UHGV virus genome: UHGV-0018584
Direction: 5' to 3' (one strand)
Origin: a virus
DNA length: 47,561 nt
In this document: piece by piece, positions 4,778 to 45,155 of the stretch
Numbering within the stretch: the stretch's first letter is position 1
How the letters are laid out: every line of letters begins with the position of its first letter
The notes under the pieces: generated by a model
What the model saw: only the letters and a program-made list of their open reading frames with translations
The model's database searches: none
What the model was told of the DNA's origin: nothing
Program-made: the position numbers and the translations under genes

Positions 4778-6220
4778 TTGCGCCTAGGGATAACCACCAT
4801 GATTTTTGACTTTTTTGATTATTGCGACTTTGTATCCGCACAAAGCAAGCAAGGATTTATTGACCTTCCGTACCTACACTCGCTCTGTGAAGTGCTGGAA
4901 ATGGTAGTCGCTGGCACGCTACCAGAAGGTAAGAAAAACCTACTTGTCAATATCCCGCCGCGATGCTTTAAAACTGAAACAGTTAGCAAACGCTTCCCCG
5001 CTTTTTGCTTATCAGAAATCGCTCCGGATTGTGAATTCATACTCACGTCCGCAACTATGCCGCTTGCCGCCAGTAACGCAATGGGAGTAAAGCGCATTAT
5101 AGCATCTGATTGGCATACTGATATATATCCAGACACGCAAATAGACAGAAAAGCAAAAGATACACAGACGTACTTTAAGACTACAGCCGGAGGTTCTATA
5201 TACGCCGCCGGTCTTAACGGGACGATAACAGGATTTGGAGCGGGAAAGGTACGCTCCGGCTTCGGTGGCGCTATAATTATCGATGACCCTTTAAAGGCGG
5301 CCGATGCATCCAGTCCTACACAACTGGAAACATGCGTCCGTTACTATCTCGACGTACTGAAGTCGCGTAGGAACAATGCAAAAAACACGCCATTTATACT
5401 AATTGCGCAAAGACTACATGTAGACGACTTGGCAGGATGGATACTTAAAAACGAACCAGAGGACTGGCACTTAGTACAATATCCGGCAATCGATAGTAGC
5501 GGAATTCTGTTGAACAGTGTTACAATGAATAAGTCCGAACTGGAGACGCTGAAAATCGTCGCGCCGCAGACTTTTTACGCACAATATCAACAAACGCCCA
5601 TTGTGCCTGGCGGAAATCTGATAAAGCTTGACTGGTGGAAGACGTACAATGCTGAGGAAGAAAGTCCAGTAGGCTTGTCTTATATAACAGCCGATACGGC
5701 CTACGGCGAGCATGAGGAAAGCGACGCATCGGTTTTTCAACATTGGATAGCCAATGAAAAAGGCCTCTACTTTGTATCCTCTATATATGGAAAATGGGAC
5801 TTTCCAACACTTTTGGAGAACGCTCGCCGCTTCTGGCTTGCGAGTAAAGCGCGTGAGTTCTGGGTAGAGGGTAAAGCAAGCGGACTATCTTTGGCACAGA
5901 CATTGCAAGCGCCGCCACTGGACATCCCTGCTCAAAGCTGGAACCCGCTTGACTTTGACTTCCCCAAGGATAAAGTCGGCAGAATGCAAGAATCGGCATG
6001 GTTCGTGCATGGTGGTAAAGTCTTTTTGCCTAGCGGCCCAGTGCCAGTACGTATATCCACAGACTCTGTAGTGCACGTCACGGCGGCCGCCGCCGCACTG
6101 ATGGAAGAAAGCGCCGCCTTTACAAGGGACATGTCACACACACATGATGACCACTGTGACGCTTTTACGATGGCCGTGTCTTTGTATGCTGACGCTGGCG
6201 GAAAAGTAGACAAAATATAA
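4778..6220 (+). CDS. terL: Terminase large subunit
   Basis: ATPase motifs are present (PRCFKTE P-loop-like, GGAIIIDDP Walker B). The C-terminal nuclease fold has acidic residues (ITADTAYG, HDDHCDAF). The start is more likely the ATG at 4799, because 4736-4787 forms a nested palindrome. Confidence 0.85.
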   Translation: MRLGITTMIFDFFDYCDFVSAQSKQGFIDLPYLHSLCEVLEMVVAGTLPEGKKNLLVNIPPRCFKTETVSKRFPAFCLSEIAPDCEFILTSATMPLAASNAMGVKRIIASDWHTDIYPDTQIDRKAKDTQTYFKTTAGGSIYAAGLNGTITGFGAGKVRSGFGGAIIIDDPLKAADASSPTQLETCVRYYLDVLKSRRNNAKNTPFILIAQRLHVDDLAGWILKNEPEDWHLVQYPAIDSSGILLNSVTMNKSELETLKIVAPQTFYAQYQQTPIVPGGNLIKLDWWKTYNAEEESPVGLSYITADTAYGEHEESDASVFQHWIANEKGLYFVSSIYGKWDFPTLLENARRFWLASKAREFWVEGKASGLSLAQTLQAPPLDIPAQSWNPLDFDFPKDKVGRMQESAWFVHGGKVFLPSGPVPVRISTDSVVHVTAAAAALMEESAAFTRDMSHTHDDHCDAFTMAVSLYADAGGKVDKI

Positions 6221-6248
6221 CCCGCCATATGGCGGGTTATATTTATCT
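6219..6248. terminator. Bidirectional terminator between terL and the leftward gene
   Basis: Perfect palindrome AACCCGCCATATGGCGGGTT followed by a T-rich tract. Confidence 0.65.
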
Positions 6249-6251
6249 GTA

Positions 6252-6530
6252 CTAGGCATCAATTGGAAGCGTGTCCAGTTGACGGCGAATTTTGCATAAG
6301 GCACGCTTTACAAGCTTCGCGCTGTTGTTATAGCTTCTCTCGTACTCCATTCGGAGTTCGTCATACAGCCTTTCGAGTACAGTACGTGCTCCCCATTCTT
6401 CAATGTCCGCCGCGTATTCTTTGCAGAGGTATTCCGCGTTGTGGTTGATATACGGCCCACGGTATTCGAGGCGTTCGGCAAAGTCAGCTATGAGGCGATT
6501 GATAGTCTTTTCGTAAGAAGCGGTAGTCAT
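6252..6530 (-). CDS. Hypothetical small protein, member of a paralogous MTT-start family
   Basis: Internal start MTTASYEK with a GGAGGAAC RBS. The longer ORF 6252..6731 would run through its own promoter. The N-terminus is similar to the two genes downstream on this strand. Confidence 0.5.
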   Translation of the reverse strand: MTTASYEKTINRLIADFAERLEYRGPYINHNAEYLCKEYAADIEEWGARTVLERLYDELRMEYERSYNNSAKLVKRALCKIRRQLDTLPIDA

Positions 6531-6594
6531 TGTGAGTTCCTCCGTCGGATTGTTTTGCTTGGGAGTTTGGCATTTCCTCCCTCCCTGCAAGTCC

Positions 6595-6633
6595 AATATG
6601 CGCTTTTTCGGTACACTTGTCAACACTTTTAAC
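6595..6633 (-). promoter_or_regulatory. Sigma70-type promoter with an extended -35 (TAAAAGTGTTGACAAG-N17-CATATT)
   Basis: Read on the minus strand. One of three near-identical cassettes (6595, 7609, 45486). Confidence 0.55.
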
Positions 6634-7784: not shown

Positions 7785-8030
7785 TGGTCACTAAAAAAAA
7801 TCTTGCGGGATGTATGGACAGAGGTCACGGAAGCAACTGTTGGCACGGCGTTTGCAATCCAGTGGCGCGGCGTGGGTACGTGCATTATGCGCGTGGGAGC
7901 GGAACAGGAAAAGTTCTATAGAGAAGGCTATGAGTTGCAACGAGGCGATGTTCTCCGCATAAAGCCTAAAGATAAGCTGTACGCGTTTGCCAATACTGAT
8001 GGCGCGTTGACGATAGAGGAAGTCGCATAA
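7785..8030 (+). CDS. Hypothetical small protein upstream of the collagen-like fibre
   Basis: ORF starting MHTWSLKK with a weak RBS. Beta-rich composition. Confidence 0.35.
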   Translation, partial: WSLKKILRDVWTEVTEATVGTAFAIQWRGVGTCIMRVGAEQEKFYREGYELQRGDVLRIKPKDKLYAFANTDGALTIEEVA

Positions 8031-8095
8031 TGTAAAGCCGTCCACTCATAATGTTTAGTTATGTAAACTTCTGAAAGCCAAGGGGAGAATTCCAT

Positions 8096-10711
8096 ATGTC
8101 TATATCGAATCGCACAATCGATGTCCTGTACGGCGGCAACGGCGGAGGCGGCGGTACGCCGGGCAAAGACGGTAAGGATGGTAGGGATGGTGTCGACGGT
8201 AAAGATGGCGCGCCGGGCAAAGATGGTGTCGACGGCGCGGCGGCGGGCTTTGGTACTGTCACGGCTACTGTAGACGATACAGTAGGCACGCCTACTGTAT
8301 CGGTCACTACAAGTGGCCCTAATACGGCGCTCGATATAGATTTTTCGTTTACAGGCCTCAAAGGCGCGGATGGTGCTAAAGGTGAAGAGGGCGCGCAAGG
8401 CCTGCCCGGACAAGACGGTACAGACGGCGTAGACGGTAAAAATGCTGACATAACGGCCATAACAGCCACTATATCTGAAGATGCTACAGGCACGCCTAAA
8501 GCCACTGTAACAAAGACTGGCCCTACTGAAAATATGCAACTTGTCTTTGACTTTGTGAATATTAGAGGCAAAGACGGTAAAGATGGCGCGCCGGGCAAGG
8601 ATGGTACAGATGGAACGGACGCGATTGCGGCGCTTGTACCCAGAGGCGACTATAGTGCGGGTGCAACACCCGCGTATGTAGTCAATGACTACATAACTTT
8701 TACAGACGGTAGCTCTTATGTCTGTAAAAAGGACAATCCGAACAACGTTGCGCCTACAACCGGCAAAAATGACGATGAATTCTGGCAGCTTATGGCGTTG
8801 AAAGGCGCACAAGGCGACAAAGGCGAGCAGGGAGAGGAAGGCGCGCCGGGCAAAGATGGCTTGGGCTTTGTAATACGCGGCGACTATAGTAAGACTGCAA
8901 GTCCGACATATACAATGCGGGACACGATTGGATATAACGGAAAAAGTTATATCTGCAAAAAAGATAATCCCGGCAACGTCGCGCCAACGACTGGAACCGC
9001 GACTGACCCATACTGGATGCTTGTAGCTGACGCCGGAACAGCGGCTACAGTCACTGTAGGTACTGTAGAAGGCGTATCCAATCTATATAAACCGGAGGTA
9101 ACTAATAGCGGCGACACACAAAACGCCGTTTTAGACTTCAAGCTTCCACAAGGCTTGAACGGCGTCGGAGGCTCGCCTTTCTGGAACTGGGGCGCGATGG
9201 AAAACATATCGGGTAAATTTAGAGCAGGAAGTCTAACAGGAAACACAAACGCGTCTAGGTACTGGGTAAGTGACAGATACGCAAGGATATTCTTTAGAGT
9301 AAACAATCGTTCAGCGATTACAGTAAACTTATACTATATACCAGCAGATAATCCAACATCCGCAAAATTTTATAGTCTATGGTTTACTGGAGCAAGCTCT
9401 GCGGCTAGTAGGCCTTGGGTAGACGTGCGTCCGGGGGATGCGGTTGAACTTGTGGGCGTAGGAAACGCTGTTATTGACAACTTCGACGCGTGGGCGGTTC
9501 CTGCGGGAGCTTACGCAGTGCCTTTTGTAGACTGGCAAGCAGCTACTGTAGATATAGACAAAGCGACTCCCTCCGTTACTACAACAAACGCGGACGGTGG
9601 AGGGAATATACTTTGGTACGAGTCGCCAGAGAACGCCGCGATTCATATATCTGTAGGCGGTACTACTACAAAAGGCCGCTTTGCTATCGTGCGTCCGTCC
9701 GGTGAGTTGATAGACGACGCAAGCTTCACAAGCCCGATTATCGAAAAAACTATAGACGTTACGCAAGGCGTTGACGCTTCTTTTGCGCCTACAGCTTCAG
9801 AAAGCGTTATATACGCCAGAAAGAACGAAGTTTTCGGCATTGCGTCATATACAACCGGCGTAAATGTAGAGGACAATATTAATTACCTGAAAGCTAGGCC
9901 GTTATACGACGGTACGCTGAAAAGCTTTGTAGGCGGGCCCACAAAAGCATTGCCCGATTGGAGTAAGACAATCGACTTAAGCGCAAGCGTTGTGTATCCT
10001 GACACTATGCAGTGCTTGCTTGGTGACACAATGTACACTTTTTACGGGCCAAGCGTAAAGGCGCCTTGCGATGGATACTTGAGGATATACGTAAACGCCA
10101 CCTCTGGCACGTCTACTCCTGTGTGGTCGTGCGTAAAGAGCGAACATTCCGCTATAGGAACGTGCACTAAAAGCTACGGAACTACCTATAAAAACGGAGT
10201 AAACGTTTATATTTGTGAGCCTGTCAAGAAAGGCGACGTCCTTTTGGTAGGCGCTACAAAAAGCGGCGCGATTACACTAAGCAGTACCGGTTTTAAGCTT
10301 GCTGAGGTGTCTCCCATATTTGAAGAGGGCATAAACGTCGGCATTTTAGACGCCTCTGCTACGCAAGACGTTACAAAGAAAGCGAAAACAATGTCCGCGA
10401 ACCTTGTTTTTGCAGGCACACGCTATACATATACTGGAAAAGGCGTAACGGCAGAGGACGACGGCGAAATAGCTATGTATGTCACAGCGAAAAGCGCATC
10501 CGCGTCAACGGCACATTGGAGCATGGTACTTGCTCCGGGAGCTACTACAGCAATGCCTTGTGACTTTAGATACAACGCCAATACATATAGTAATGTCTGC
10601 TGGTGGAAACAGACAGTAGCAAAAGGCGACACGTTTATAGTAGGAAGAACAGGAACCGTAGACTACTATACAGTCGACTACGCCTTTTTCACACCGATAA
10701 AGAAGCGATAG
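8096..10711 (+). CDS. Collagen-like repeat fibre protein with CBM5/12-like repeats (candidate head or tail fibre)
   Basis: Gly-X-Y runs (GKDGKDGRDGVDGKDGAPGKDG) occur several times. Three copies of a GTVTAT...TGTP..V...GP...L.FDF fibre motif are present. Two Y.CKKDNP.NVAPTTG....W.L modules are present. It lies between terL and the portal gene. Confidence 0.7.
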   Translation: MSISNRTIDVLYGGNGGGGGTPGKDGKDGRDGVDGKDGAPGKDGVDGAAAGFGTVTATVDDTVGTPTVSVTTSGPNTALDIDFSFTGLKGADGAKGEEGAQGLPGQDGTDGVDGKNADITAITATISEDATGTPKATVTKTGPTENMQLVFDFVNIRGKDGKDGAPGKDGTDGTDAIAALVPRGDYSAGATPAYVVNDYITFTDGSSYVCKKDNPNNVAPTTGKNDDEFWQLMALKGAQGDKGEQGEEGAPGKDGLGFVIRGDYSKTASPTYTMRDTIGYNGKSYICKKDNPGNVAPTTGTATDPYWMLVADAGTAATVTVGTVEGVSNLYKPEVTNSGDTQNAVLDFKLPQGLNGVGGSPFWNWGAMENISGKFRAGSLTGNTNASRYWVSDRYARIFFRVNNRSAITVNLYYIPADNPTSAKFYSLWFTGASSAASRPWVDVRPGDAVELVGVGNAVIDNFDAWAVPAGAYAVPFVDWQAATVDIDKATPSVTTTNADGGGNILWYESPENAAIHISVGGTTTKGRFAIVRPSGELIDDASFTSPIIEKTIDVTQGVDASFAPTASESVIYARKNEVFGIASYTTGVNVEDNINYLKARPLYDGTLKSFVGGPTKALPDWSKTIDLSASVVYPDTMQCLLGDTMYTFYGPSVKAPCDGYLRIYVNATSGTSTPVWSCVKSEHSAIGTCTKSYGTTYKNGVNVYICEPVKKGDVLLVGATKSGAITLSSTGFKLAEVSPIFEEGINVGILDASATQDVTKKAKTMSANLVFAGTRYTYTGKGVTAEDDGEIAMYVTAKSASASTAHWSMVLAPGATTAMPCDFRYNANTYSNVCWWKQTVAKGDTFIVGRTGTVDYYTVDYAFFTPIKKR

Positions 10712-18510: not shown

Positions 18511-20714
18511 ACTGTGAAAGCACTTTGTCGCCGGTTGTATGTCCTAAGAACCCGCTTACGAGAGACATTGACGTATCTGTATCTATCAGCAGGCCTATTG
18601 CGGAAGTGGCCACTGATATGACCATGATTTGCTTTGCTACGCCGTCCGTTGACTTCGGCGACGGCGGCAATGACCGCGTGCGCTTTTACAGTTCTTTCGA
18701 CGCCCTTACGCAGGATGTTCCAGTGAATTCGCCAGCTTACTGGGCTGGAACGGCATTCTTTAGTCGCTCTGACAGGCCGACCACGATGTGCGTGGGCCGC
18801 ATCTTTGAAGACGATACGCAAGCGGTACTTCGCGGCGGCGCTATGTCCGCATATCAGGTCAATAAGATAACCGATGGCGGCTTTGACATTTATATTGATG
18901 GAGAACTCACGTCTGTAAGAGGACTTGACTTTACAAACGTAAAGAATGTCGCGGATGTGGCAAAAGTAGTCGCCGCCAATGTTGTCGGTGTCTCCGTTGG
19001 CGCTGAAAACGGCGCATTGGTTATCCGTTCAAATACGAAAGGCGACGGTTCGGAATTGTCTTACGCAGTTCCGCCAAGCGCTACTACATATAACAGCTAT
19101 ACAATCGGAAGCGTTGTAGAAAGCGACATCTTCAACACGCTTTCCGGAACTAGCGACGGCGCTATTGTGCTGCACTATAACGGAAAGCCGTATGGCATCG
19201 CCGACATGGATTTCACGACTTGCGCAAGTCTGAAAGACGTGTTTTCCGTTATTGAGCTGGCGTTGCGCGCTGCGGGCTTGTCTGGCGCCAAGGTCAACGG
19301 CGATGACGACTTTATCGTTTTTTCGATTTTCGATGTTGCCGGAGCTGGTTTCCGCCCTTGCACGGAAGCGCCAGTAGGTACTGACATTGGCAAGCTGCTA
19401 CATCTTTTCGATATTGATACGCCGAAGACTACCAGCGTTGGGGCGGCCGCTACCGAAAAGCCTTGCAGCATCACGTCTGGGCAAGGCCTTGATTTTACAG
19501 CGATTAAAGCGCTTGGTACAACGAACGTTGAGATTGCCGGTACCAGTTATCAGGTAAACTTCTCCAACGTGACTGACGGCCAAACGCTCGTTACGGCTTT
19601 GACGGCCTCTACACAACTTGCGGCCGCGTATACGCCTACGTATACAAATGCACTGACGCTTAACGGTAAAGGCAATAAGTTTGTCTATTATCTGAAAGAC
19701 GATAAAGTCGGACAGGCTTTGAAGCTTACAGCTGGAACCGCAGGTACCATCGTACCTGTGGCCGTGTCAAAGTACACTACTGTAAAGGCGACTGACGTAT
19801 CCGCGCTTCTTAAACTGTCGTCCACAACCGCCTCTAATATCGTCATTGGCTACAGCCCTTGCGGCATCACTTCTGAACTCAATAACATCGCAAGGGCGGC
19901 GCGTTGCGCCGGACGCTCTATATATGGCTGGGTAATCGATGCTAAATATAGGGACACGCAGGAACAGCGGGACGTAGCAGACTGGATTGAACCGCGTAAG
20001 CCAGCGTACTTTTCCACGTGCACGAACAGCCCGCAAGCATACAATAGCGCCGATATATCGAATATCGGATACTACTGTTATAACAAAGGCTATACGCGCA
20101 CGTCTGTAATCTACCATGACAACTCGCAAGTGTATCCTGACATGAGCTATATTGCGCTTGCGCTGTCTGTAGACTACGCGCAGGAAAACAGCACATTAAC
20201 TATGAAATTCAAGCAGTTAACTGGTATCGAAACCAGCCCGTTGACTGAATCGCAGTTGTCTGTGCTTAACAGCCGACGCATTAACAGTTATGTGTCAATC
20301 GGTAATTCCGCAACTACAGTTCGCGAAGGCGTGCAAGGTAATTCGTCTTGGTATACAGACAGCCTTGTAAACCTCGACAACTTTGCAGAGGAACTTCAAG
20401 TGGAAGTCTATAACGTCTTCCTTCGTAACAAGAAAGTTCCGTATACCAACGGCGGACAAAACCTTTTGGTAAGCGCTGCTGCAAAGATATGCCGAAGATA
20501 CACACAGAACGGAACTTTTGCAGAGCGAAGCGTTGAGACGCTTGACAATGAGACGGGCTTTACAACGCTTCCCGCAACCGACATTCGTCCGGCCGCTGTA
20601 TATAGCGCTACTGTATCTGACAGGGAAAAGAGGCTTGCGCCGCCAATTGCGATAACGTGCTATGAAGCTGGCGCGTTCCACAAAGTCGCTCTTAATATCG
20701 GCGTCTACAGCTAG
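18492..20714 (+). CDS. Tail sheath protein (candidate)
   Basis: 741 aa, the first large tail gene. It is followed by a tube-sized protein, a chaperone with a frameshift site, and the tape measure. GGAGAAAACC RBS before the ATG at 18492. Confidence 0.55.
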   Translation: MPDATVNCESTLSPVVCPKNPLTRDIDVSVSISRPIAEVATDMTMICFATPSVDFGDGGNDRVRFYSSFDALTQDVPVNSPAYWAGTAFFSRSDRPTTMCVGRIFEDDTQAVLRGGAMSAYQVNKITDGGFDIYIDGELTSVRGLDFTNVKNVADVAKVVAANVVGVSVGAENGALVIRSNTKGDGSELSYAVPPSATTYNSYTIGSVVESDIFNTLSGTSDGAIVLHYNGKPYGIADMDFTTCASLKDVFSVIELALRAAGLSGAKVNGDDDFIVFSIFDVAGAGFRPCTEAPVGTDIGKLLHLFDIDTPKTTSVGAAATEKPCSITSGQGLDFTAIKALGTTNVEIAGTSYQVNFSNVTDGQTLVTALTASTQLAAAYTPTYTNALTLNGKGNKFVYYLKDDKVGQALKLTAGTAGTIVPVAVSKYTTVKATDVSALLKLSSTTASNIVIGYSPCGITSELNNIARAARCAGRSIYGWVIDAKYRDTQEQRDVADWIEPRKPAYFSTCTNSPQAYNSADISNIGYYCYNKGYTRTSVIYHDNSQVYPDMSYIALALSVDYAQENSTLTMKFKQLTGIETSPLTESQLSVLNSRRINSYVSIGNSATTVREGVQGNSSWYTDSLVNLDNFAEELQVEVYNVFLRNKKVPYTNGGQNLLVSAAAKICRRYTQNGTFAERSVETLDNETGFTTLPATDIRPAAVYSATVSDREKRLAPPIAITCYEAGAFHKVALNIGVYS

Positions 20715-31376: not shown

Positions 31377-33197
31377 TTAGTCAGCAGCCGCCCAGTTTTC
31401 GCCAGTATGGCAATCCGCTATGAGCGGAACCTTAAGCTTTACGCACGTTTCCATCGTCTCTTTCAGCTCCGCAAGCGCTTCATGCCCTTCTTTTGTATCC
31501 GGTACGGATACATCTATCTCGTCATGTACAGTGATGTGCGGCTGTAGTACACTGTACAAGCCCTTATTGTAGCTGTCTACAAGTGCTTTTTTCATGATGT
31601 CGGCTGCTGTACCTTGGATAAGGCGATTGAAAAGCGAGTGCAACGCACGCGAAGGATGTACTCTTGCACGCCTCCCTAAAAGCGTAAAGATATAACCGCG
31701 CCTTTCAGCTTTTTTAATGACGGCTTGTCTAGTGACTTTTAGATATGGAGCAGCCCGATGGTATCCCTCCATAAACATTTCGGCTTCCTCTTCTGTCCAA
31801 TGGAATTTCTTTGCGGCCGTCTTATAACCCATGCCATACGACGCGCCGAAGTTCAAACGCTTAGATGTTCGTCTATCAAAATGTGTCAAATCCTCTATTC
31901 GTTTGTGGTAATCGGTTTTTGGATTTTCGTTGTAGGCCTTCCGCAAGTCATCTGAACCGGGGCCGATTGCGTAGTGAGCAGCTATCCTATACTCTACTTG
32001 TGAATAGTCTAGCTTGGCCCAGACACAATCTTCCTCCGGTATAAAAAGCCGTCTAAGTATCTGCCCTTGCAAAAGTTCGTCACCATCGGAGTAATCGTCA
32101 TCCTGCTGCGCAGAAACCTGCTGCAAGTTCGGCTTACTGGAGGAAAAGCGCCCCGATACAGCGCCAAAGCCGTCGCTTCGGAGCGGATGGAAGTTACAAT
32201 GTAACCTGTCTTTTACAAGAAAAGCTGTATACGGCTTTAGGAACATGTCGCACAAGGTATCGTAATGCCTATACTGTAAAACCTTTACAAGCATAGGTTC
32301 CTGCTTCGCAAGTTCCTTAAGAACATCGCCGTCCAATGACGGATTTCCTTTAAGGCCTTTCTTTTTCATTAGCTCCGTAGGCTCTTTTCTTGGGTACGCC
32401 AAGCCTTTTTTGTCAAGTATCTTGGCGAGTTGCGTAGTAGAGCCTATATTAAACTCACAACCTGCCCACGAAAGGATGCACTTGTGCAGGTCATACAGCT
32501 TATCGATTACGCGATAGCATGTCTTTCTGAATACAGTCAAGTTGATACGGACGCCCTGTTGCCGCATCCGCAAAAGCATTGGCAAAAGCCCGCGCTCTAT
32601 ACTGTATATCTCCAAAAGGCCTTGTCGCTCCATCTCTACAAGCTGCTTTCTGAAAAGCTGTACTACAAGCGAGGCGTCAAGCTCAGCATAGCGCCGTACT
32701 ACATCAGCAGGCATCTTATAGATATGCTCCCTTGCATCCTTGTACTTCCAGCCTTTTGCATCGCAGTACTCTTCAAGCTCTGTACTCGCTTTAGGCGCAA
32801 GGCCGTAGGTCTTTGCAAGCGCAGACAAGCTATAGCTTGTTCTATACTCGTCAAGCAGCGGTTCCGCGTATTGCACGTCATTCCAGCTACCCGCAACGGA
32901 AATCTGATACTTCTCTGAATGAAGCCAGTCCAAATCGTACAGGAAATTTGCGCCTACCTTTTGGTTAGGCGAAGACAAGATGTCCCGTATTATTTTCAGA
33001 TTGCGCTCTTTTGTCTCAGCGCTTGTATCAGGATGACCGATGTCAAGATAGACCGATACATCATCTGTGGAAAAGCTTACTCCACAGATATGCCCGCCGC
33101 CTCTATACATAGACGGCCCAAGCGTCAGCAAGTCGGGGTCGTGCGTCTCTATATCTACGCCTAGCAAGTCTGTCCGCTTGAAGATACCGTAGTCCAT
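31377..33197 (-). CDS. DNA polymerase, family A, with a 3'-5' exonuclease domain
   Basis: Exo motif DIETHD. Pol motif A is DYSQVEYR, motif B is RRTSKRLNFGASYGMGY, and motif C is VHDEI. AGGAGAGGG RBS. Confidence 0.9.
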   Translation of the reverse strand: MDYGIFKRTDLLGVDIETHDPDLLTLGPSMYRGGGHICGVSFSTDDVSVYLDIGHPDTSAETKERNLKIIRDILSSPNQKVGANFLYDLDWLHSEKYQISVAGSWNDVQYAEPLLDEYRTSYSLSALAKTYGLAPKASTELEEYCDAKGWKYKDAREHIYKMPADVVRRYAELDASLVVQLFRKQLVEMERQGLLEIYSIERGLLPMLLRMRQQGVRINLTVFRKTCYRVIDKLYDLHKCILSWAGCEFNIGSTTQLAKILDKKGLAYPRKEPTELMKKKGLKGNPSLDGDVLKELAKQEPMLVKVLQYRHYDTLCDMFLKPYTAFLVKDRLHCNFHPLRSDGFGAVSGRFSSSKPNLQQVSAQQDDDYSDGDELLQGQILRRLFIPEEDCVWAKLDYSQVEYRIAAHYAIGPGSDDLRKAYNENPKTDYHKRIEDLTHFDRRTSKRLNFGASYGMGYKTAAKKFHWTEEEAEMFMEGYHRAAPYLKVTRQAVIKKAERRGYIFTLLGRRARVHPSRALHSLFNRLIQGTAADIMKKALVDSYNKGLYSVLQPHITVHDEIDVSVPDTKEGHEALAELKETMETCVKLKVPLIADCHTGENWAAAD

Positions 33198-33215: not shown

Positions 33216-33554
33216 CTACGCGTCTTCCGCTACGTTTTTGTAGTTGCTGTTATGCGCAGCTTTTGCACATTCCGGACTGCAATATTTCTGACGGCCGTTG
33301 CCGTAAAAGTCTTTTTTGCAAGACATAAGCGCACACTGCTTTTTAGTCTTTTCGACATGCACGACACGGCCGCTACGCTTGCAAGCATCACTGCAAAACT
33401 TTTGCGTGATTCGTTTTGCGGTAAATTCGTTGCCGCATATTGCGCACTTCTTTTTGTATTCTACAGGAGCAAAACCGCGACATTCTGTGCATATGAGGAC
33501 TTTTGCGTTATAGTTTGCCTTATATTCTTTTCCGCATTTTGTACAGATAGCCAT
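33216..33554 (-). CDS. Zinc-ribbon protein with multiple CxxC pairs
   Basis: CTKCG, CTEC, CAICG, CSDAC and CSPEC pairs are present. Confidence 0.5.
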   Translation of the reverse strand: MAICTKCGKEYKANYNAKVLICTECRGFAPVEYKKKCAICGNEFTAKRITQKFCSDACKRSGRVVHVEKTKKQCALMSCKKDFYGNGRQKYCSPECAKAAHNSNYKNVAEDA

Positions 33555-33557
33555 AGT

Positions 33558-34802
33558 CTACTTCCCCTCTTTACAAGCGTCTTCAAGACTTTTGCACTCA
33601 ATACGCGGCCAATGGGTATAGTCTGTCTTGTAAGGTTTATCGTATATAAGCTTTCTGAAGCCCGCGAAGTCCAGAAGCTTCAGGCATGCGTCACAAGGGC
33701 CGTGCGTTGTATATACAGTGCACTCTTCTGGCGCTGAGCGCTCTGCGACACCAGAGTACAAGTACTCTACTACAGCTCGCATTTCCGCATGTACAGACGG
33801 GCAGCTGTCTCCGTGCCAAGCATCCTCTTTACCGGCATCACGCACGCACTCAACGCACTCACCATCTTCCGCCCCGCCATAGCCACTAGCGACTACAAAT
33901 CCGCACTTGTCTATGATGACACATCCGCACTTTTTCTTTTTGCAAGGGGAGTCTTCCGCCTCTTTCCATGCAATGCGCATTACTTTTTTATGCAGACAAT
34001 CCGCATGTTTGTCTATTGACAGGAACTTTTTCTTGTAGTGTTTAAGGATTTCCTTATATATGAACGCAGATTTCACCGCGTCCTCTCTATTAAAGCTGTA
34101 GACTGTAGTCTGTAACTTCGCAACATCTTTTTCATATAGATGTAAAGAGCCTGCGCGATGACGGTATATGCCAAGCTTTACAGGCTGTCCAGTCTCACTA
34201 TGCAGACGCTCTTGCATCACCTGCCAGACAAGGGAAAAGAACGGCGCGTCATAGGGTAAGCCATAATTCAAATCACAACTCCGCATGTTTACAGTCATGT
34301 TCAATACAACGCCGTCGTCCGCACCTCGAATGCACATAAACTGTATGTGCATTGTACAAGGATTGTCATTGCTGATATACGCGTGTTCGTTGCTGTGCAA
34401 CACCATCACGGCTTTCTTTGAAAAAGGATTGTTGACAAGCGCGCTAAGCGCGTATTCAAACTGGGTAGAACCACGGCTATTGATGTCGTGAAATAGCAAT
34501 TTTCCGTAGTTGCTGTTTATCGTTTCTCCGTCATCGGAGCACCGTTTCCAAAACTTTGAGCACTTCATTGCATCTAGCAGCTTATCGGAACCGCTCAGAT
34601 AAAAGGCAAGCTCTTTGTCAAGATAGTCAAGCGAGGGCATCCTTTCCTTTAAAAAGCATTGAATTGGCTCAAAAAACACCAGCTCCGCATCCAGCAGCTC
34701 AAACAGAGTAGCGCCTTTCCTATTAGTGGAAACCCTATCAGGTCTGGTGATGACGCTATTGATAAGCCCGCCATACGACACGACATCCATGTTAAAAAGC
34801 AT
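33558..34802 (-). CDS. Thymidylate-synthase-family pyrimidine C5-modifying enzyme (Asp at the specificity position) fused to a dCMP-deaminase-like zinc domain
   Basis: ThyA core NPCTMHIQF...RSCDLNYGLPYDAPFF...HRAGSLHLYEKD aligns gap-free to E. coli ThyA PCHAFFQF...RSCDVFLGLPFNIASY...HLY. Asp replaces Asn177. The C-terminus has HAEMRAV and PCDACLKLL, the CDA zinc ligands. GGAGGGACG RBS. Confidence 0.75.
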   Translation of the reverse strand: MLFNMDVVSYGGLINSVITRPDRVSTNRKGATLFELLDAELVFFEPIQCFLKERMPSLDYLDKELAFYLSGSDKLLDAMKCSKFWKRCSDDGETINSNYGKLLFHDINSRGSTQFEYALSALVNNPFSKKAVMVLHSNEHAYISNDNPCTMHIQFMCIRGADDGVVLNMTVNMRSCDLNYGLPYDAPFFSLVWQVMQERLHSETGQPVKLGIYRHRAGSLHLYEKDVAKLQTTVYSFNREDAVKSAFIYKEILKHYKKKFLSIDKHADCLHKKVMRIAWKEAEDSPCKKKKCGCVIIDKCGFVVASGYGGAEDGECVECVRDAGKEDAWHGDSCPSVHAEMRAVVEYLYSGVAERSAPEECTVYTTHGPCDACLKLLDFAGFRKLIYDKPYKTDYTHWPRIECKSLEDACKEGK

Positions 34803-36213
34803 GTGTTTCGTCCCTCCACAGTACAGGATAACCGTTTTGCGTTTCCTGTAGCTTTACAGTGAGTTTTTCTTTTGCTCTTGTAATTGCTACGTAGTAGCAA
34901 CGTAACTCCGAATCCGGAGACTCTATAAGACTTTTATATGTCTTCCTACTACAGTCTAACGACAATATGACATGCGCGGCTTCCGCTCCCTTGCTTGCGT
35001 GAATGGTGTTCAACGTGACATTCGGTATAGTTTTTTCGTTATACCCGTTTGCAAGCAGCGCCCTGTAGTAATGCGCGTCCAAAAGCGTGTCATTGGCGTT
35101 TATGTACCAAGGGGCGGCGTCATCTACTATTGTAAAGTAGTCCTTATATAACTGTAACTTAGACGCGGTTTCTTCTGTCTTAGTTTTACGATGCTCTTCA
35201 AAAGCGTATATCGCTCGAAAGCACTTTTCATCAATACTTGAAACGCCTCTGTGGATATAAGGTACGCCTTTTTCCTTAAGCGACGCCTCAACTTGCCGCA
35301 TGTGATAGCGATTACGACAAAGGATAAGCGTGTCATCTTGCAGCTCACCAAGCTTGACTGCGCCCCATGTCGGCATGTGCTCTACCTCACCTTCCTTATC
35401 CCTAGGACGGTACACTTTTTCCGCTCGTCTGTCAATCAGCTTCAGTACTGTATCAGCTAGCCTATGCACTTGCTTTGGCACGCGGTAGCTCTGAGAGAGT
35501 ACTACAGTCTCATCACCACGGCGCAAAAACTCTGACACGTCCGCGCCGTTCCACTCATATATCGCTTGGTCGTCGTCGCCAGCGATATATACTGTATCAC
35601 AGTTGCAGAAAAGCTTGTCCACTATACGCCACTGCTGTGGAGTAAGGTCTTGCGCCTCATCCACGAAGGCCACTTTTACAGGCAAAGCGGTTCCTCTTTT
35701 TTCGTACTCTGTAAGCAAGTCAGCGTAGTCCAGCAGCCCGAAGTGCTTTTTGAAATTCAAGTAGTTAGCTGCTACAAAGAGCAGCTTCTTTTCGTCCAGA
35801 GACTCTATAAGCTTTTTGCAGTAGTGCACGTTGGCCTGTCGCATGAGCAGCGCAAAAAGATATGCGTTATCGCCTTGGTACATTTCCAGCTCCGGACTAT
35901 AATATCCTACAAAGTCCATACCTACAGCATCGGAAAACTTTTTATAGTCAGACTTGCCCATGATTTGTGACTTTTTAGCTCCGATGCTGGAAAAGCAAAG
36001 GGAGTGCAATGTGCGGAAGTAACGCATTTGCGATAACTGAAACCCGAACTTTTTGCGCGCCCTTGCTGCTCCCTCATACGCGCCGCGCTTTGTGAAAGAC
36101 ACAAAAGCGATTTCTTCTGGCGCGTAAGACTGTAACGTTTTTTCCATAAGGGAAAGTAGATACGTAGTCTTGCCTGTACCGGGAGGGCCGTATATCTTGC
36201 GCGTAGTCATCAA
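34792..36213 (-). CDS. SF1 DNA helicase (RecD / Dda-like)
   Basis: GPPGTGKTT Walker A, VDEAQDL motif II, and a C-terminal UvrD_C-like TIHASKGAE...YVAITRAKEKL. Confidence 0.75.
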   Translation of the reverse strand: MMTTRKIYGPPGTGKTTYLLSLMEKTLQSYAPEEIAFVSFTKRGAYEGAARARKKFGFQLSQMRYFRTLHSLCFSSIGAKKSQIMGKSDYKKFSDAVGMDFVGYYSPELEMYQGDNAYLFALLMRQANVHYCKKLIESLDEKKLLFVAANYLNFKKHFGLLDYADLLTEYEKRGTALPVKVAFVDEAQDLTPQQWRIVDKLFCNCDTVYIAGDDDQAIYEWNGADVSEFLRRGDETVVLSQSYRVPKQVHRLADTVLKLIDRRAEKVYRPRDKEGEVEHMPTWGAVKLGELQDDTLILCRNRYHMRQVEASLKEKGVPYIHRGVSSIDEKCFRAIYAFEEHRKTKTEETASKLQLYKDYFTIVDDAAPWYINANDTLLDAHYYRALLANGYNEKTIPNVTLNTIHASKGAEAAHVILSLDCSRKTYKSLIESPDSELRCYYVAITRAKEKLTVKLQETQNGYPVLWRDETHAF

Positions 36214-38625: not shown

Positions 38626-38992
38626 TTGTGTGACCTACCAAAAGGGCGTGCCTGTAACCTTTTGTAACGGACTGTAACAGCATTGCAAGCTGACCGGGTT
38701 GATACTTCAAATCATCCGCAATACTATGGAGCTTTCGTCCTTTGTAATACTTAGCCTCTATAAAGAGGTACGCTTCACTGTTGTACAGTAGAATATCCGG
38801 CGTTCCGTTTTGCAGCTTGTTTTCAATTCGCAGATATTCAAAGCCCGCCCTTGTATACCTGTCCTTTACCAAATGGTAAATAGACTGCTCGCCTTTGCTG
38901 AATCGGAAGCCAGCTACAACTTCACAAAATAGCCAGCTTCCGAACAGCGGATAACGGCTAGCGAATACGCTAGAACACGTCAATCGTGTCAC
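38552..38992 (-). CDS. VRR-NUC domain nuclease
   Basis: GTPDILLY ... LFIEAKY ... KLHSIADDLKYQPGQLAMLLQ matches the VRR-NUC PD-ExK-Q pattern. Near the SNF2 helicase, a common pairing. Confidence 0.5.
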   Translation of the reverse strand: MTRLTCSSVFASRYPLFGSWLFCEVVAGFRFSKGEQSIYHLVKDRYTRAGFEYLRIENKLQNGTPDILLYNSEAYLFIEAKYYKGRKLHSIADDLKYQPGQLAMLLQSVTKGYRHALLVGHTSGELAILSGRKTDAENIANVVGRL

Positions 38993-39743
38993 TGTGAGCC
39001 TCGATAGCTTCCGTCACCACGCCGGCAAGGCTGTTGGTAAAGTCCACCTTTGAAGCATCCGGCAAGCCTTGCCTTTCAGCGCTCACAAGCTGGTACTGCG
39101 CTTTTGTCACAAAGCCCGCGAATTCCACGTGAAATCCCGACCAGTCACCTTTGTCATTGGACATGGGCGGCGTTGTGATAGTCCAACGCTGATGATAGGG
39201 AAGGGCGCGTGTTGAAGTACCCGGAATTATTGTAGAAAGCATGAGCCTGTTCCATCGGCGCGCCTCTTTAAGCTGCGAGCTAGTGAGACAGAGGAGACAT
39301 ACGCCATCTTCTGGATAGTCGGGAAAGACTATGTAGTAAGTGAACGTGTCAACGAACTCCGACAAGGTGTCCTCCCTGAAAAGCTTTCCGTTATCGGCTT
39401 TCGAAATGCTGCCTTTTGCAAGCATATCCGCTACAGCTTCTGGCGAATGCGTTGCGACAAAACCTCCTCTATCTTTTTTCCACTCTACAAAGCTTCTGTC
39501 AAATCGGCCAACAATAACGTCGACAGGAGGCTGGATGAGTCTGTTGTTTACACTATTATACAACATCCCTTCTGTAGCGCCCTCTATGTACTCAGGACGC
39601 GATTTTTTGCATTGCGGGCTGATGCTCTGCAAAACACGGATGAAAGGAAAACTGATAACGTCCGTGTTAAGCTGCTCAAATCCGCCCATGCCGTCATTGG
39701 CAAGGTAGTCAAACGCTTTTTCGGTGCTGGTGTTGTCGCTCAT
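38970..39743 (-). CDS. Putative gp2.5-like ssDNA-binding / annealing protein
   Basis: 257 aa with an acidic C-terminal tail ending in Phe (EAIEAHSDTIDVF). It sits in the replication module next to the nucleases. Confidence 0.3.
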   Translation of the reverse strand: MSDNTSTEKAFDYLANDGMGGFEQLNTDVISFPFIRVLQSISPQCKKSRPEYIEGATEGMLYNSVNNRLIQPPVDVIVGRFDRSFVEWKKDRGGFVATHSPEAVADMLAKGSISKADNGKLFREDTLSEFVDTFTYYIVFPDYPEDGVCLLCLTSSQLKEARRWNRLMLSTIIPGTSTRALPYHQRWTITTPPMSNDKGDWSGFHVEFAGFVTKAQYQLVSAERQGLPDASKVDFTNSLAGVVTEAIEAHSDTIDVF

Positions 39744-40217: not shown

Positions 40218-40775
40218 TTATTTTATATTGGTTTTGTTGTACACAAAGACTTTTACAGACTTGGGCAAGTCGCCTATAGGCATCCCGTCTACGCCGTCAT
40301 CCGCAAGCCCGCAAAGCTCTTTGATGTACTTTTTGAGCGTCTGCGGATGGATGACGCGCTTTGTATCGGGCAGGATGCCGTAGTCTGCATATATCTTTTG
40401 CTGTATCTCTTTAGTTACATGCGTGGGAAGCTTGCCAAAGTCAAAGCTTGTCTTTACAATGGCGTCGTCGCCTCTTGCTTCAAGAAAGTGTACAAAGTCA
40501 TCGATGTCCTTTACAGTGGCGGATACTTCCGTCTTTACAGTGACCTTCGAGCCATCCAGCAAGCGTAGCTCGGATAAGCCACTCTTATGCAAGAGTTCCG
40601 GTATATCCTCTTGCGATATTTTGTTGAAGGTGGCTTTGGCTTTTTCCAGCGCTGCTTCCAGCTCCCCTATCTGCTCCTTAGCCGTCTTCCATGCAGCGCA
40701 AAGGCCTTCAAGCCTCTTCAAATCGCCGCCTTCGGCTTTTGGCGTATCCTGCATAAGGTAGTCATACTCTGACAT
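40218..40775 (-). CDS. Hypothetical protein
   Basis: 185-aa ORF with an RBS in the early operon. Confidence 0.4.
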   Translation of the reverse strand: MSEYDYLMQDTPKAEGGDLKRLEGLCAAWKTAKEQIGELEAALEKAKATFNKISQEDIPELLHKSGLSELRLLDGSKVTVKTEVSATVKDIDDFVHFLEARGDDAIVKTSFDFGKLPTHVTKEIQQKIYADYGILPDTKRVIHPQTLKKYIKELCGLADDGVDGMPIGDLPKSVKVFVYNKTNIK

Positions 40776-44156: not shown

Positions 44157-45155
44157 CTATGCAATGCGGAACGAAACATTTTCCGCGTCCGCTTGCGTAC
44201 CCCATCCCACAGGGCGCTGGACTTCAAAGACGTCATGGCGGGGATTGTACGCATGCTTTATAGTCCTACGCTTTGCTTCTCCTTTCCCTTCAAGATGCGG
44301 CGCGGCGTCTCTACAGTACTTATCGAACTCGCATAAGCAATTCTGTATGTCATTTGCTTTAAGGTAGCAGCCGTCAAAGGTCACGCCAGCGAACGGTCTA
44401 CCAGTTTCCTGATAAAGGTTCGACAGTTGAATGCAGAGTGCTTCAACGGCTTTTTTGGAAATTTTTCCGCCGGTCAGCTTGCTTGCACCACGCTGTGCTC
44501 CTGGTCCCGCGACGCAAAAGTCTCTAAGGTGCTGGAAGTCGACTCTTACATAACTGTAATCCAACGCAAACTGGTACGCAAGGAAACCTCCAAAGCCCGG
44601 AAGCGTCCGCAAAAGCTCAAAGCGCGGCGCAACTTCAAAGGAAAAGAGCAGTGTATCCAACGCTTCGGGCTTCCGCAGGATGTAGTTCTCCAGTCCAGTG
44701 AGGTAAAAGGCGTTCCGCGTCACGCCTTCACAGCTACCCATAATATAGGCCGTTGTATAAAGTCGCTCGCCCCTATCGAACATCTGATGGTCGGCCCACT
44801 TTATCAGTTTTTTTATCTTCACATGAGGGACATCCTTAAAGTCATCAGGAATGCGCTCCCATGTATCAATCCTTCCAAAAAGGCGGAAGATATAGATAAT
44901 CGCTGCAAGGCGGCGCTTTTCCTCAAGTGTCTTCGGAAAACCGTTATGCGCGACGTCCGCATTGATAAGGTTTATCAGATACTGGCTCACGCGGTCACAA
45001 TGTCGAAAAACATTGGTAAACTTATAACGGTCAAGCGTTGCGTCCTCTTTCACGATAGCAGGGCTTGCGTAGCCATGCTTGCACAGGAAGCGTGCGAAGC
45101 GCTTTTGTACAAAGTCTTCAAAGAGGCCGAAGTTCTGGGCGCTGTTGGTGTCCAT
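44157..45155 (-). CDS. Hypothetical protein with an HhH-like LRTLPGFGG motif
   Basis: 332 aa. LxxLPGxGG resembles the helix-hairpin-helix signature of HhH DNA glycosylases. No catalytic residues were confirmed. Confidence 0.35.
   Translation of the reverse strand: MDTNSAQNFGLFEDFVQKRFARFLCKHGYASPAIVKEDATLDRYKFTNVFRHCDRVSQYLINLINADVAHNGFPKTLEEKRRLAAIIYIFRLFGRIDTWERIPDDFKDVPHVKIKKLIKWADHQMFDRGERLYTTAYIMGSCEGVTRNAFYLTGLENYILRKPEALDTLLFSFEVAPRFELLRTLPGFGGFLAYQFALDYSYVRVDFQHLRDFCVAGPGAQRGASKLTGGKISKKAVEALCIQLSNLYQETGRPFAGVTFDGCYLKANDIQNCLCEFDKYCRDAAPHLEGKGEAKRRTIKHAYNPRHDVFEVQRPVGWGTQADAENVSFRIA

Follow-up and report, generated by a model that had tools for sequence, protein, structure and literature searches.

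The stretch of DNA analysed here, referred to as the window, is the 47,561-nucleotide virus genome UHGV-0018584, and one gene on its minus strand encodes a protein in which a thymidylate synthase (ThyA)-like domain is fused to a deoxycytidine monophosphate (dCMP)-deaminase domain. The gene stands in an operon that also encodes a family-A DNA polymerase and a protein of the hypermodification family HMUDK_hel, both described below. The open reading frame (ORF) and its domains are positioned as follows:

33558..34802, minus strand: whole fusion ORF, a single unbroken frame of 414 amino acids (aa) comprising the ThyA-like domain, a helical linker and the dCMP-deaminase domain
34092..34802, minus strand: ThyA-fold domain, predicted 5-hydroxymethyl-dCMP (5hmdCMP) synthase, aa 1-237 (Pfam PF00303; phrog_160 at aa 7-237)
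33558..33992, minus strand: dCMP-deaminase domain and stop codon, aa 271-414 (Pfam PF00383; phrog_174)

The start of the fusion ORF and the stop of the UvrD-like helicase gene upstream share 11 nt, and a GGAGG ribosome-binding site lies 5' of its ATG. In Pfam, Thymidylat_synt matched aa 58-234 with an expectation value (E) of 1e-14 (54.8 bits against a cut-off of 24.3 bits) and the zinc-binding family dCMP_cyt_deam_1 matched aa 271-387 with an E of 3e-14 (53.2 bits against a cut-off of 25 bits); PHROGs and NCBIfam gave the same assignments for both domains. An AlphaFold2 model of the fusion protein, built on 27 homologues, had a mean predicted local distance difference test score (pLDDT) of 85, and its closest folds by Foldseek (E of 1e-13) were the cytidine monophosphate (CMP) hydroxymethylase MilA and the T4 dCMP hydroxymethylase (template modelling score of 0.75 on the target), followed by ThyA. 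By sequence, the best match among solved structures was T4 dCMP hydroxymethylase (1b49, E of 2e-10) and the next was MilA, whereas classical ThyA structures matched with E values five orders of magnitude worse than that of the T4 enzyme.

The residues that define enzyme classes within the ThyA superfamily were located by alignment. HMMER placed the query RSCDLNYGLPYD over the T4 sequence RSNDVVFGFRND, which puts Asp185 on T4 Asp179, and MAFFT with E. coli ThyA put PCT on PCH (Cys149 on Cys146), RSCD on RSCD and GLPYD on GLPFN (Asp185 on Asn177). The three correspondences with E. coli ThyA had been given in a preliminary description of this DNA and were reproduced here, as was its placement of an Asp at the E. 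coli Asn177 position; the catalytic Cys is retained. That description had also proposed comparison by profile or structure as a check; the comparison returned T4 dCMP hydroxymethylase, MilA and the T4 deaminase cd as matches, with Asp and not Asn at the specificity position. The codons concerned are:

34356..34358, minus strand: catalytic Cys149 (Cys146 in E. coli), followed by the codon of Thr150, which takes the place of His147
34365..34367, minus strand: Asp146, at the E. coli Leu143 position, within SNDNPCT; placed by the alignments and invariant in the family
34272..34274, minus strand: Asp177 (E. coli Asp169, kept), within RSCD; placed by the alignments and invariant in the family
34248..34250, minus strand: Asp185, at the pyrimidine-specificity position (E. 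coli Asn177, T4 Asp179); placed by the HMMER and MAFFT alignments

Asp185, Thr150, Asp146, Asp177 and Cys149, together with the motif residues of the deaminase, are invariant in the 27 fusion homologues, which are 40-88% identical to the window protein. The superfamily residues C149, E64, Y99, R174, D177, H221 and Y223 (equivalent to Cys146, Glu58, Tyr94, Arg166, Asp169, His207 and Tyr209) are likewise invariant in the fusion family, in keeping with its place in PF00303. Replacement of Asn177 by Asp in ThyA homologues is the switch of substrate from deoxyuridine monophosphate (dUMP) to dCMP, and the His147 position co-varies with modified-cytosine phages (PMC8670742). A bulky Leu143 keeps water out and thereby leads to methylation, T4-like hydroxymethylases carry Asp or Glu at this position, and Asp169 to Asn is the mark of the recently found 5-hydroxy-dCMP synthases (bioRxiv 10.1101/2025.06.16.659550). 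Since Asp185, Thr150, Asp146 and Asp177 occupy the four diagnostic positions, the alignments assign to the ThyA-like half the published signature of a 5hmdCMP synthase; those of methylases, dUMP enzymes and 5-hydroxy-dCMP synthases do not fit. The reference enzymes distribute over two of these positions as follows:

E. coli ThyA: His at residue 147, Asn at residue 177
SPO1 gp29 dUMP hydroxymethylase and its homologues M6 gp58, Pam3 gp52 and LuckyBarnes gp41: Asn at 147, Asn at 177
T4-like gp42, VPE25, ATCCB, AB434P2 and Xp15: Thr at 147, Asp at 177
XP12 dCMP methylase: Pro at 147, Asp at 177; the ThyA C-terminal REP..PLP subdomain is kept and the phage encodes a dihydrofolate reductase (DHFR)

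With the N-terminal domain of the fusion as query, phmmer scored 96 bits for AB434P2, 93 for ATCCB, 71 for VPE25, 61 for T4-like gp42, 52 for Xp15 and 22 for E. coli ThyA, and it matched neither the XP12 methylase nor the dUMP hydroxymethylases of SPO1, M6 and Pam3. The VPE25 and ATCCB homologues adjoin beta-glucosyltransferase genes. T4 gp42 and the stand-alone VPE25 and ATCCB homologues, the best matches in sequence and fold, share with the fusion the ThyA fold, the catalytic Cys, Asp at N177, Thr at H147, Asp at L143 and Asp169, as well as a short C-terminus without the closing subdomain of ThyA. Unlike them, the fusion has a deaminase attached, and its phage has no deoxynucleoside monophosphate (dNMP) kinase, dCTPase or alpha/beta-glucosyltransferase in the window. 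The fusion also differs from them at K129-K130 (codons 34413..34418, minus strand), an invariant Lys-Lys (SKK) across the fusion family in place of the Arg-Arg (DSRR) through which the partner subunit clamps the nucleotide phosphate and which is present in all reference ThyA-family enzymes compared.

The preliminary description had left the end product open between methyl and hydroxymethyl; the Asp at the L143 position, the retained Asp169 and the missing C-terminal subdomain favour hydroxymethyl. The ThyA domain could instead be a dCMP methyltransferase of the XP12 kind, making 5-methyl-dCMP (5mdCMP) of which the deaminase would send part to thymidylate, so that 5-methylcytosine (5mC) replaces cytosine and no separate thymidylate synthase is needed. 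XP12 does have Asp at the N177 position and the same gene order, a dCMP deaminase coming directly after ThyA(D), and such a role has been proposed for deaminases encoded in cis, 5mdCMP being made by 5/7 of their partner enzymes (bioRxiv 10.1101/2024.12.05.627091). The fusion, however, has no phmmer similarity to the XP12 enzyme, compared with 61-96 bits for the hydroxymethylases, it carries Asp at the L143 position, the REP..PLP segment of the C-terminal subdomain, which serves hydride transfer and which XP12 retains in the alignment, is absent from its N-terminal domain, and no DHFR was found in the window, whereas XP12 encodes one. As HMUDK_hel in the neighbourhood and the TAGT glycosyltransferase of related phages would both need a hydroxyl group, we regard a methylase as unlikely.

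Similarly, the residues bear on the reverse order of reactions, in which the deaminase would make dUMP and the ThyA domain, despite its Asp, would convert it to 5-hydroxymethyl-dUMP (5hmdUMP), placing the logic of SPO1, M6 and Pam3 on one polypeptide. A dCMP deaminase accompanies the dUMP hydroxymethylase in SPO1- and M6-type phages, HMUDK_hel is common to M6, Pam3 and the window, and the window polymerase is 30-32% identical to those of M6 and Pam3. The SPO1, M6, Pam3 and LuckyBarnes enzymes, on the other hand, have Asn at both N177 and H147, where the fusion family always has Asp and Thr, and phmmer found no match to the first three of them. Given that Asn/Asp is the established specificity switch (PMC8670742), a dUMP-first order seems quite improbable.

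The deaminase half was examined in the same way, and its zinc site is encoded at two motifs:

33783..33791, minus strand: H338-A-E340, a zinc ligand and the catalytic glutamate, followed by M-R and not by the usual x-N of HAExNA
33684..33698, minus strand: P369-C370-D-A-C373 (PCDAC), the other zinc ligands, conserved in the family

The complete HAE...PCxxC site reported in the preliminary description is therefore present, and H338, E340, C370 and C373 are invariant in the 27 homologues together with four more Cys residues, C287, C316, C319 and C334, which probably form a second, structural zinc site as known in the dCMP-deaminase subfamily. Matches in the PDB were T4 cd (1vq2), the S. mutans enzyme (2hvv) and that of cyanophage S-TIM5 (4p9c), with E values of 4e-10 to 9e-9, and the domain also matched the NCBIfam ComEB model; because these are its matches, we assign it to the mononucleotide dCMP-deaminase type. 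T4 cd, ComEB and human DCTD resemble it in being of this type, in the HAE and PCxxC zinc site and in a Cys-rich insertion consistent with a second zinc site, and differ in having the Asn of HAExNA and no ThyA-fold domain in front. The fusion protein can thus be described, from its residues, as a cytosine-type ThyA domain with a hydroxymethylase signature joined to an intact dCMP-type deaminase, and the strict conservation of both active sites across the 27 homologues argues that both domains are catalytic.

Another chemistry would follow if the ThyA domain were a 5-hydroxy-dCMP synthase of the RB69/DLP3 type or made some other C5 product, or if the deaminase domain were a non-catalytic module for nucleotide binding or regulation. 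Hydroxylation in place of hydroxymethylation has recently been found in ThyA homologues that combine Asp177 with an acidic residue 143, so products in this superfamily can surprise (bioRxiv 10.1101/2025.06.16.659550). The diagnostic Asn at position 169, as in RB69 gp48, is nevertheless absent, Asp177 being kept and invariant, and the invariance of HAE, PCxxC and the four further Cys is as expected of an active enzyme, which leaves such a chemistry very improbable. On the residue tests, this possibility, the methylase and the dUMP-first order are all disfavoured.

We propose, with a probability of about 0.5, that the fusion protein is a bifunctional nucleotide-pool enzyme serving the route dCMP to 5hmdCMP to 5hmdUMP to 5hmdUTP (the triphosphate) to DNA. 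In the first step, which has strong sequence support, the N-terminal ThyA-fold domain would use Cys149 and methylene-tetrahydrofolate to put a one-carbon unit on C5 of dCMP, and the exocyclic methylene would be attacked by water to give 5hmdCMP. The fused deaminase domain would then take the 4-amino group off 5hmdCMP to yield 5hmdUMP, and may also use some dCMP. Lacking its own dNMP kinase, the phage would rely on the host's thymidylate kinase and nucleoside-diphosphate kinase to raise 5hmdUMP, an analogue of deoxythymidine monophosphate (dTMP), to the triphosphate, and the phage family-A polymerase, which would have to accept a modified deoxynucleoside triphosphate, would put 5-hydroxymethyldeoxyuridine (5-hmdU) in for some or all of the thymine. 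Judging from gene content, HMUDK_hel would finally act on the hydroxymethyl base in DNA, with TAGT doing so too in related phages. Fusion would couple both reactions and commit dCMP to the hydroxymethyl-uracil pool, bypassing dUMP, from which host thymidylate synthase would make competing dTMP. The preliminary description had suggested a 5-substituted dCMP possibly deaminated to 5hmdUMP; the residue signature now makes 5hmdCMP the predicted first product and we favour the same route, the deamination being a step that we infer.

The route accords with the absence of certain nucleotide enzymes. No phage dNMP kinase, MazG/dCTPase, DHFR, dUTPase or HD hydrolase was found in the window, as covered by Pfam and PHROGs scans of 17 minus-strand ORFs and six early plus-strand ORFs and by precomputed Pfam annotation of the rest (structural only), and a regular-expression search for Walker-A and HD motifs in six frames of the window returned helicases only and no stand-alone P-loop kinase. 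The statement in the preliminary description that no dCTPase or kinase lies nearby thus holds. In comparison, Microbacterium phage Carostasia, which has an Asp-type ThyA and no deaminase in the stretch examined, carries Tmk and MazG there. 5hmdCMP would be a poor end product for a phage without a dNMP kinase or dCTPase, whereas after deamination it would be a dTMP analogue that host kinases can handle. In every assay cited in which 5hmdC, 5mdC or 5hodC entered E. coli DNA, a phage dNMP kinase was co-expressed (bioRxiv 10.1101/2024.12.05.627091; 10.1101/2025.06.16.659550). 5hmdCMP is a substrate of human DCTD, and the resulting 5hmdUMP is phosphorylated by thymidylate kinase (PMC10305735).

Published work on deaminases encoded beside Asp177-type ThyA homologues points in the same direction. 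They are strongly associated with phages that modify cytosine, lying within 3 kb of a ThyA homologue in 70% of cases on contigs predicted to be modified, against 6% on unmodified ones; most of the active ones prefer 5mC or 5-hydroxymethylcytosine (5hmC) nucleotides, and seven gave 5-hmdU in DNA in vivo when fed 5hmdC nucleotides (bioRxiv 10.1101/2024.12.05.627091). The fusion shares with the class of modified-cytosine-selective deaminases (mSCD) its encoding in cis with an Asp177-type ThyA homologue, here as one polypeptide, and the pairs known from XP12, PaMx74, Xp15 and MetaGPA contigs have the same two domains, ThyA first, and are tied to modified-cytosine phages. Xp15 holds the nearest unfused pair among the references compared, with scores of 52 bits (ThyA domain) and 40 bits (deaminase). 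Unlike the fusion, these pairs are separate genes, and the characterised ones join a methylase to a 5-methyldeoxycytidine triphosphate deaminase that yields thymidine triphosphate; the hydroxymethylase signature and the single polypeptide of the fusion would instead predict 5hmdUMP.

The same two domains could also serve a branch point as in T4, with 5hmdCMP made for DNA that has 5hmC in place of cytosine, the deaminase turning plain dCMP into dUMP in parallel for host thymidylate synthase as T4 cd does, and the fusion merely balancing the fluxes; the gene would then be an ordinary T4-like pair fused by chance. dCMP would be the common substrate of both domains, the nearest relatives of the ThyA domain are hydroxymethylases of the T4 type or linked to glucosyltransferases, T4 cd is among the best solved relatives of the deaminase domain, and the TAGT of related phages belongs to a family known in T2/T6 5hmC glucosylation. 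T4, however, needs its gp1 kinase, and the window offers neither a dNMP kinase for 5hmdCMP nor a dCTPase/MazG to exclude dCTP. Related phages moreover carry an HD 5'-nucleotidase-like gene, as in thymidine-replacing phages, and most tested cis-encoded deaminases of Asp-type ThyA homologues prefer modified cytosine (bioRxiv 10.1101/2024.12.05.627091). We consider a branch point of this kind possible, though clearly less probable than the sequential route through 5hmdUMP.

Beyond the fusion gene, the window and its relatives, which carry a fusion ~45-50% identical to it in the same synteny, encode candidates for further modification of the base:

44157..45155, minus strand: HMUDK_hel protein of 332 aa (family formerly aGPT-Pplase clade 1), Pfam PF18723, E of 7e-43
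L010 220-996, L013 14365-15171 and L016 10001-10777 (relatives): TAGT glycosyltransferase (PF20691), solitary, between the ligase and SNF2 helicase genes
L016 7139-7795 and L013 9331-9957 (relatives): HD/YfbR-like hydrolase, just upstream of HMUDK_hel and weakly similar to M6 gp59

The HMUDK_hel gene had been overlooked in the preliminary description of the module. Its product is a homologue of M6 gp55 and Pam3 gp50, and the gene is kept in relatives L013 and L016-L020. PF18723 was considered as evidence for a complete 5-hmdU kinase, a reading that was rejected because the M6 counterpart of the window protein is gp55, the helical domain, and not the kinase gp54; gp55 is dispensable in the reconstituted M6 reaction (PMC8989533). 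At E ≤ 1e-5 the family counts 2,964 homologues, some of them encoded on the chromosomes of Mucilaginibacter, Chryseobacterium and Marixanthomonas. HMUDK_hel was also given up as a decider between a uracil- and a cytosine-derived base, since it accompanies an Asn-type ThyA in LuckyBarnes, M6 and Pam3 but an Asp-type ThyA in Carostasia. It is thus a marker of hydroxymethyl-pyrimidine hypermodification as a whole, and it supports a hydroxymethyl product while remaining silent on which pyrimidine bears it. Because relatives have TAGT and the HD hydrolase and the window phage has neither, it seems that a common hydroxymethyl base is decorated differently within the lineage.

The thymidine-hypermodification phages M6, ViI, SP10, PhiW-14 and Pam3, with their dUMP hydroxymethylase, 5-hmdU DNA kinase and aGPT-Pplase, resemble the window and its group in HMUDK_hel, a related family-A polymerase, the HD hydrolase (in relatives) and Pam3-like replication and tail genes. 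Unlike theirs, the ThyA homologue of the window is cytosine-type. Of the complete pathway as defined by a P-loop 5-hmdU DNA kinase plus an aGPT-Pplase of clade 2 (Lee et al. 2018, 2021), HMUDK_hel is the sole component in the window, in which aGPT-Pplase2 and Nmad5 were not found. In Brevibacterium phage LuckyBarnes, a tight operon of gp41-gp38 (L023 5837-9852) encodes a 517-aa Asn-type ThyA (PCN...GIN), two TAGT proteins and HMUDK_hel, and this gene content predicts glycosylated 5-hydroxymethyluracil in a cultured actinophage. We know of no report of this base in LuckyBarnes.

Several of these observations weigh against the proposed route. The P-loop 5-hmdU DNA kinase and aGPT-Pplase2 of the known pathway were not found in the window, and M6 gp54, gp51 and gp56 and Pam3 gp49 had zero tblastn matches in the window or relatives. 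Both the TAGT and the HD hydrolase of the relatives are absent from the window phage itself, and TAGT homologues are best known as acting on glucosyl-5hmC (PMC13216743). Carostasia has HMUDK_hel together with an Asp-type ThyA, a glycosyltransferase, a kinase (Tmk) and MazG and with no nearby deaminase, so HMUDK_hel is no proof of a uracil-derived base. The only cis-encoded deaminase characterised biochemically, mSCD-B5, needed triphosphates and pairs with a methylase (bioRxiv 10.1101/2024.12.05.627091). In the deaminase motif itself, HAEMRA, a nearly invariant Arg342 (33777..33779, minus strand) stands where HAExNA has Asn; this Asn is present in the T4, S. mutans, S-TIM5, Xp15, XP12 and M6 deaminases and missing from the fusion family, and Arg342 may relate to substrate choice. 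Finally, the order of substrates and the final base are what we infer from the genes.

More tentatively, and with less confidence than in the route as such, we suggest that a single polypeptide provides a dUMP-independent and kinase-sparing supply of 5hmdUMP, that thymine is replaced by way of host kinases only, and that HMUDK_hel elaborates the base without a P-loop kinase, joined in relatives by a solitary TAGT; in that case the outcome could be a glycosylated hydroxymethyluracil in phage DNA that resembles base J. Base modifications of phage DNA defeat restriction and CRISPR defences and are also a source of tools, an example being the modification-selective deaminases used to sequence methylomes. 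If the proposal is correct, it would add a second biosynthetic entry to 5-hydroxymethyluracil DNA, from dCMP and not dUMP and without a phage kinase, and would offer a compact one-gene module to make 5hmdUMP in cells, a natural deaminase adapted to 5hmdCMP, and a simple system in which to learn the role of stand-alone HMUDK_hel proteins, a group whose thousands of homologues extend to bacterial genomes. The fusion is a testable lead and would be no surprise for specialists: an Asp-type ThyA homologue next to a modified-cytosine-preferring deaminase is already known (PMC8670742, MetaGPA 2021; bioRxiv 10.1101/2024.12.05.627091), and what is new is the fusion itself, a hydroxymethylase and not a methylase as partner of the deaminase, and the minimal context of HMUDK_hel without the kinase.

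The window amounts to an essentially complete phage genome of 47.6 kb, with identical proteins found on 47,604-bp contigs, and the phage is a lytic myophage. The plus strand from ~4.8 kb to 31 kb is structural and encodes the portal, the capsid and E217/Pam3-like tail and baseplate genes. The minus-strand operon runs, from upstream to downstream, through ORFs of unknown function, HMUDK_hel, an ATP-dependent ligase, an SNF2 helicase, DUF7307, a Pam3_Gp34-like protein, a PD-(D/E)XK-like protein, an AEP primase, the UvrD-like helicase, the fusion gene, a Cys-rich 112-aa ORF and the family-A polymerase, which places the fusion gene and the polymerase in the same replication operon, as the preliminary description had noted in calling them adjacent. 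The positions of the neighbours are:

40218..40775, minus strand: DUF7307 protein (Pam3 gp33-like), a link to cyanophage Pam3
38970..39743, minus strand: Pam3_Gp34-like protein, a link to cyanophage Pam3
34792..36213, minus strand: UvrD-like helicase, directly upstream of the fusion gene, an order kept in all relatives
33216..33554, minus strand: Cys-rich 112-aa ORF between the fusion gene and the polymerase, with several CxxC pairs in zinc-ribbon-like repeats
31377..33197, minus strand: family-A DNA polymerase in the same operon, identified through the Pfam annotation of the L010 homologue

The Cys-rich ORF begins 3 nt past the fusion stop, shares only 28% identity with the ORF that relatives have in this place and had no family match. 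The polymerase is 32% identical to that of Pam3 and 30% to that of M6. Together with the Pam3-/E217-like tail genes of the relatives, the DUF7307 and Pam3_Gp34-like proteins tie this group of metagenomic phages to cyanophage Pam3, whose own genome has a complete thymidine-hypermodification cluster of kinase, HMUDK_hel, Nmad5, Asn-type ThyA, HD and aGPT-Pplase2. No tRNA genes were found in the window, and a look-up of its 744-aa structural protein found no record.

The preliminary description had called the fusion architecture unusual. The pairing is already published, as cited above, and the architecture is common in metagenomes and not rare. A 90%-clustered protein collection held 341 homologues at E ≤ 1e-5; both Pfam domains were present in all of the best 120 of these, which are mostly 423 aa long and lie on 38-56 kb contigs, and some members already bear the JGI name 'deoxycytidylate deaminase/thymidylate synthase'. 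An exhaustive search of 1.84 billion cluster representatives yielded ~17 clusters at 50% identity that are full-length fusions, carried on metagenomic myophage contigs of 40-55 kb, and after them stand-alone homologues of the N-terminal domain (270-310 aa, 40-48% identical), with PCT and PYD in all six of those inspected; stand-alone deaminases of up to 50% identity were also present. No fusion occurred among the matches inspected from 50,697 deposited phage genomes, and a megablast of 22.5 kb of the window against the same number of phage records had zero matches, hence no annotated close relative. The family alignment, run against 185,579 species-representative genomes of bacteria and archaea, recovered no relative, which gives no prophage or host clue, and a literature search for a described ThyA-deaminase fusion found none.

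The halves occur as adjacent separate genes in Xp15, XP12, a Mediterranean uncultured phage (MedDCM) and Streptomyces phage KimJongPhill; Xp15 and the MedDCM phage had looked like fusions by tblastn and were dropped on their annotation as separate genes. One stand-alone homologue of the N-terminal domain, P0257 (45% identical), from a sister phage, lies in a syntenic module of SNF2 helicase, DUF7307, Pam3_Gp34, AEP primase, UvrD, ThyA(D) and a 153-aa dCMP deaminase, in which the start of the deaminase gene overlaps the stop of the ThyA homologue, so that two separate genes hold the position of the fusion. Since the halves are overlapping neighbours in this synteny, the fusion gene must have arisen from two adjacent genes inside this phage lineage.

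More divergent fusions were also seen, P0300 (426 aa) and P0376 (410 aa), with an Asp-type ThyA (CCT...GLPYD), a linker of ~100 aa and a deaminase bearing HGE or HAEINA and FPCNPC or YPCLPC. As their deaminase looks different and the linker is long, the fusion may have happened more than once. A further relative of the window phage, L011, lies within a scaffold of 432,583 bp (ENA ERZ28656998 scaffold_5) and has a HicA/HicB toxin-antitoxin pair among its baseplate genes (18962-19651); this may reflect a prophage or a chimeric assembly. On the P0257 contig (Logan SRR14699981; genes at 6213-6614 and 8001-9388), a DUF4406 gene sits between the primase and UvrD genes, and DUF4406 is part of the nucleoside 2-deoxyribosyltransferase-like superfamily, of which DNPH1 is another member, the enzyme that hydrolyses 5hmdUMP.

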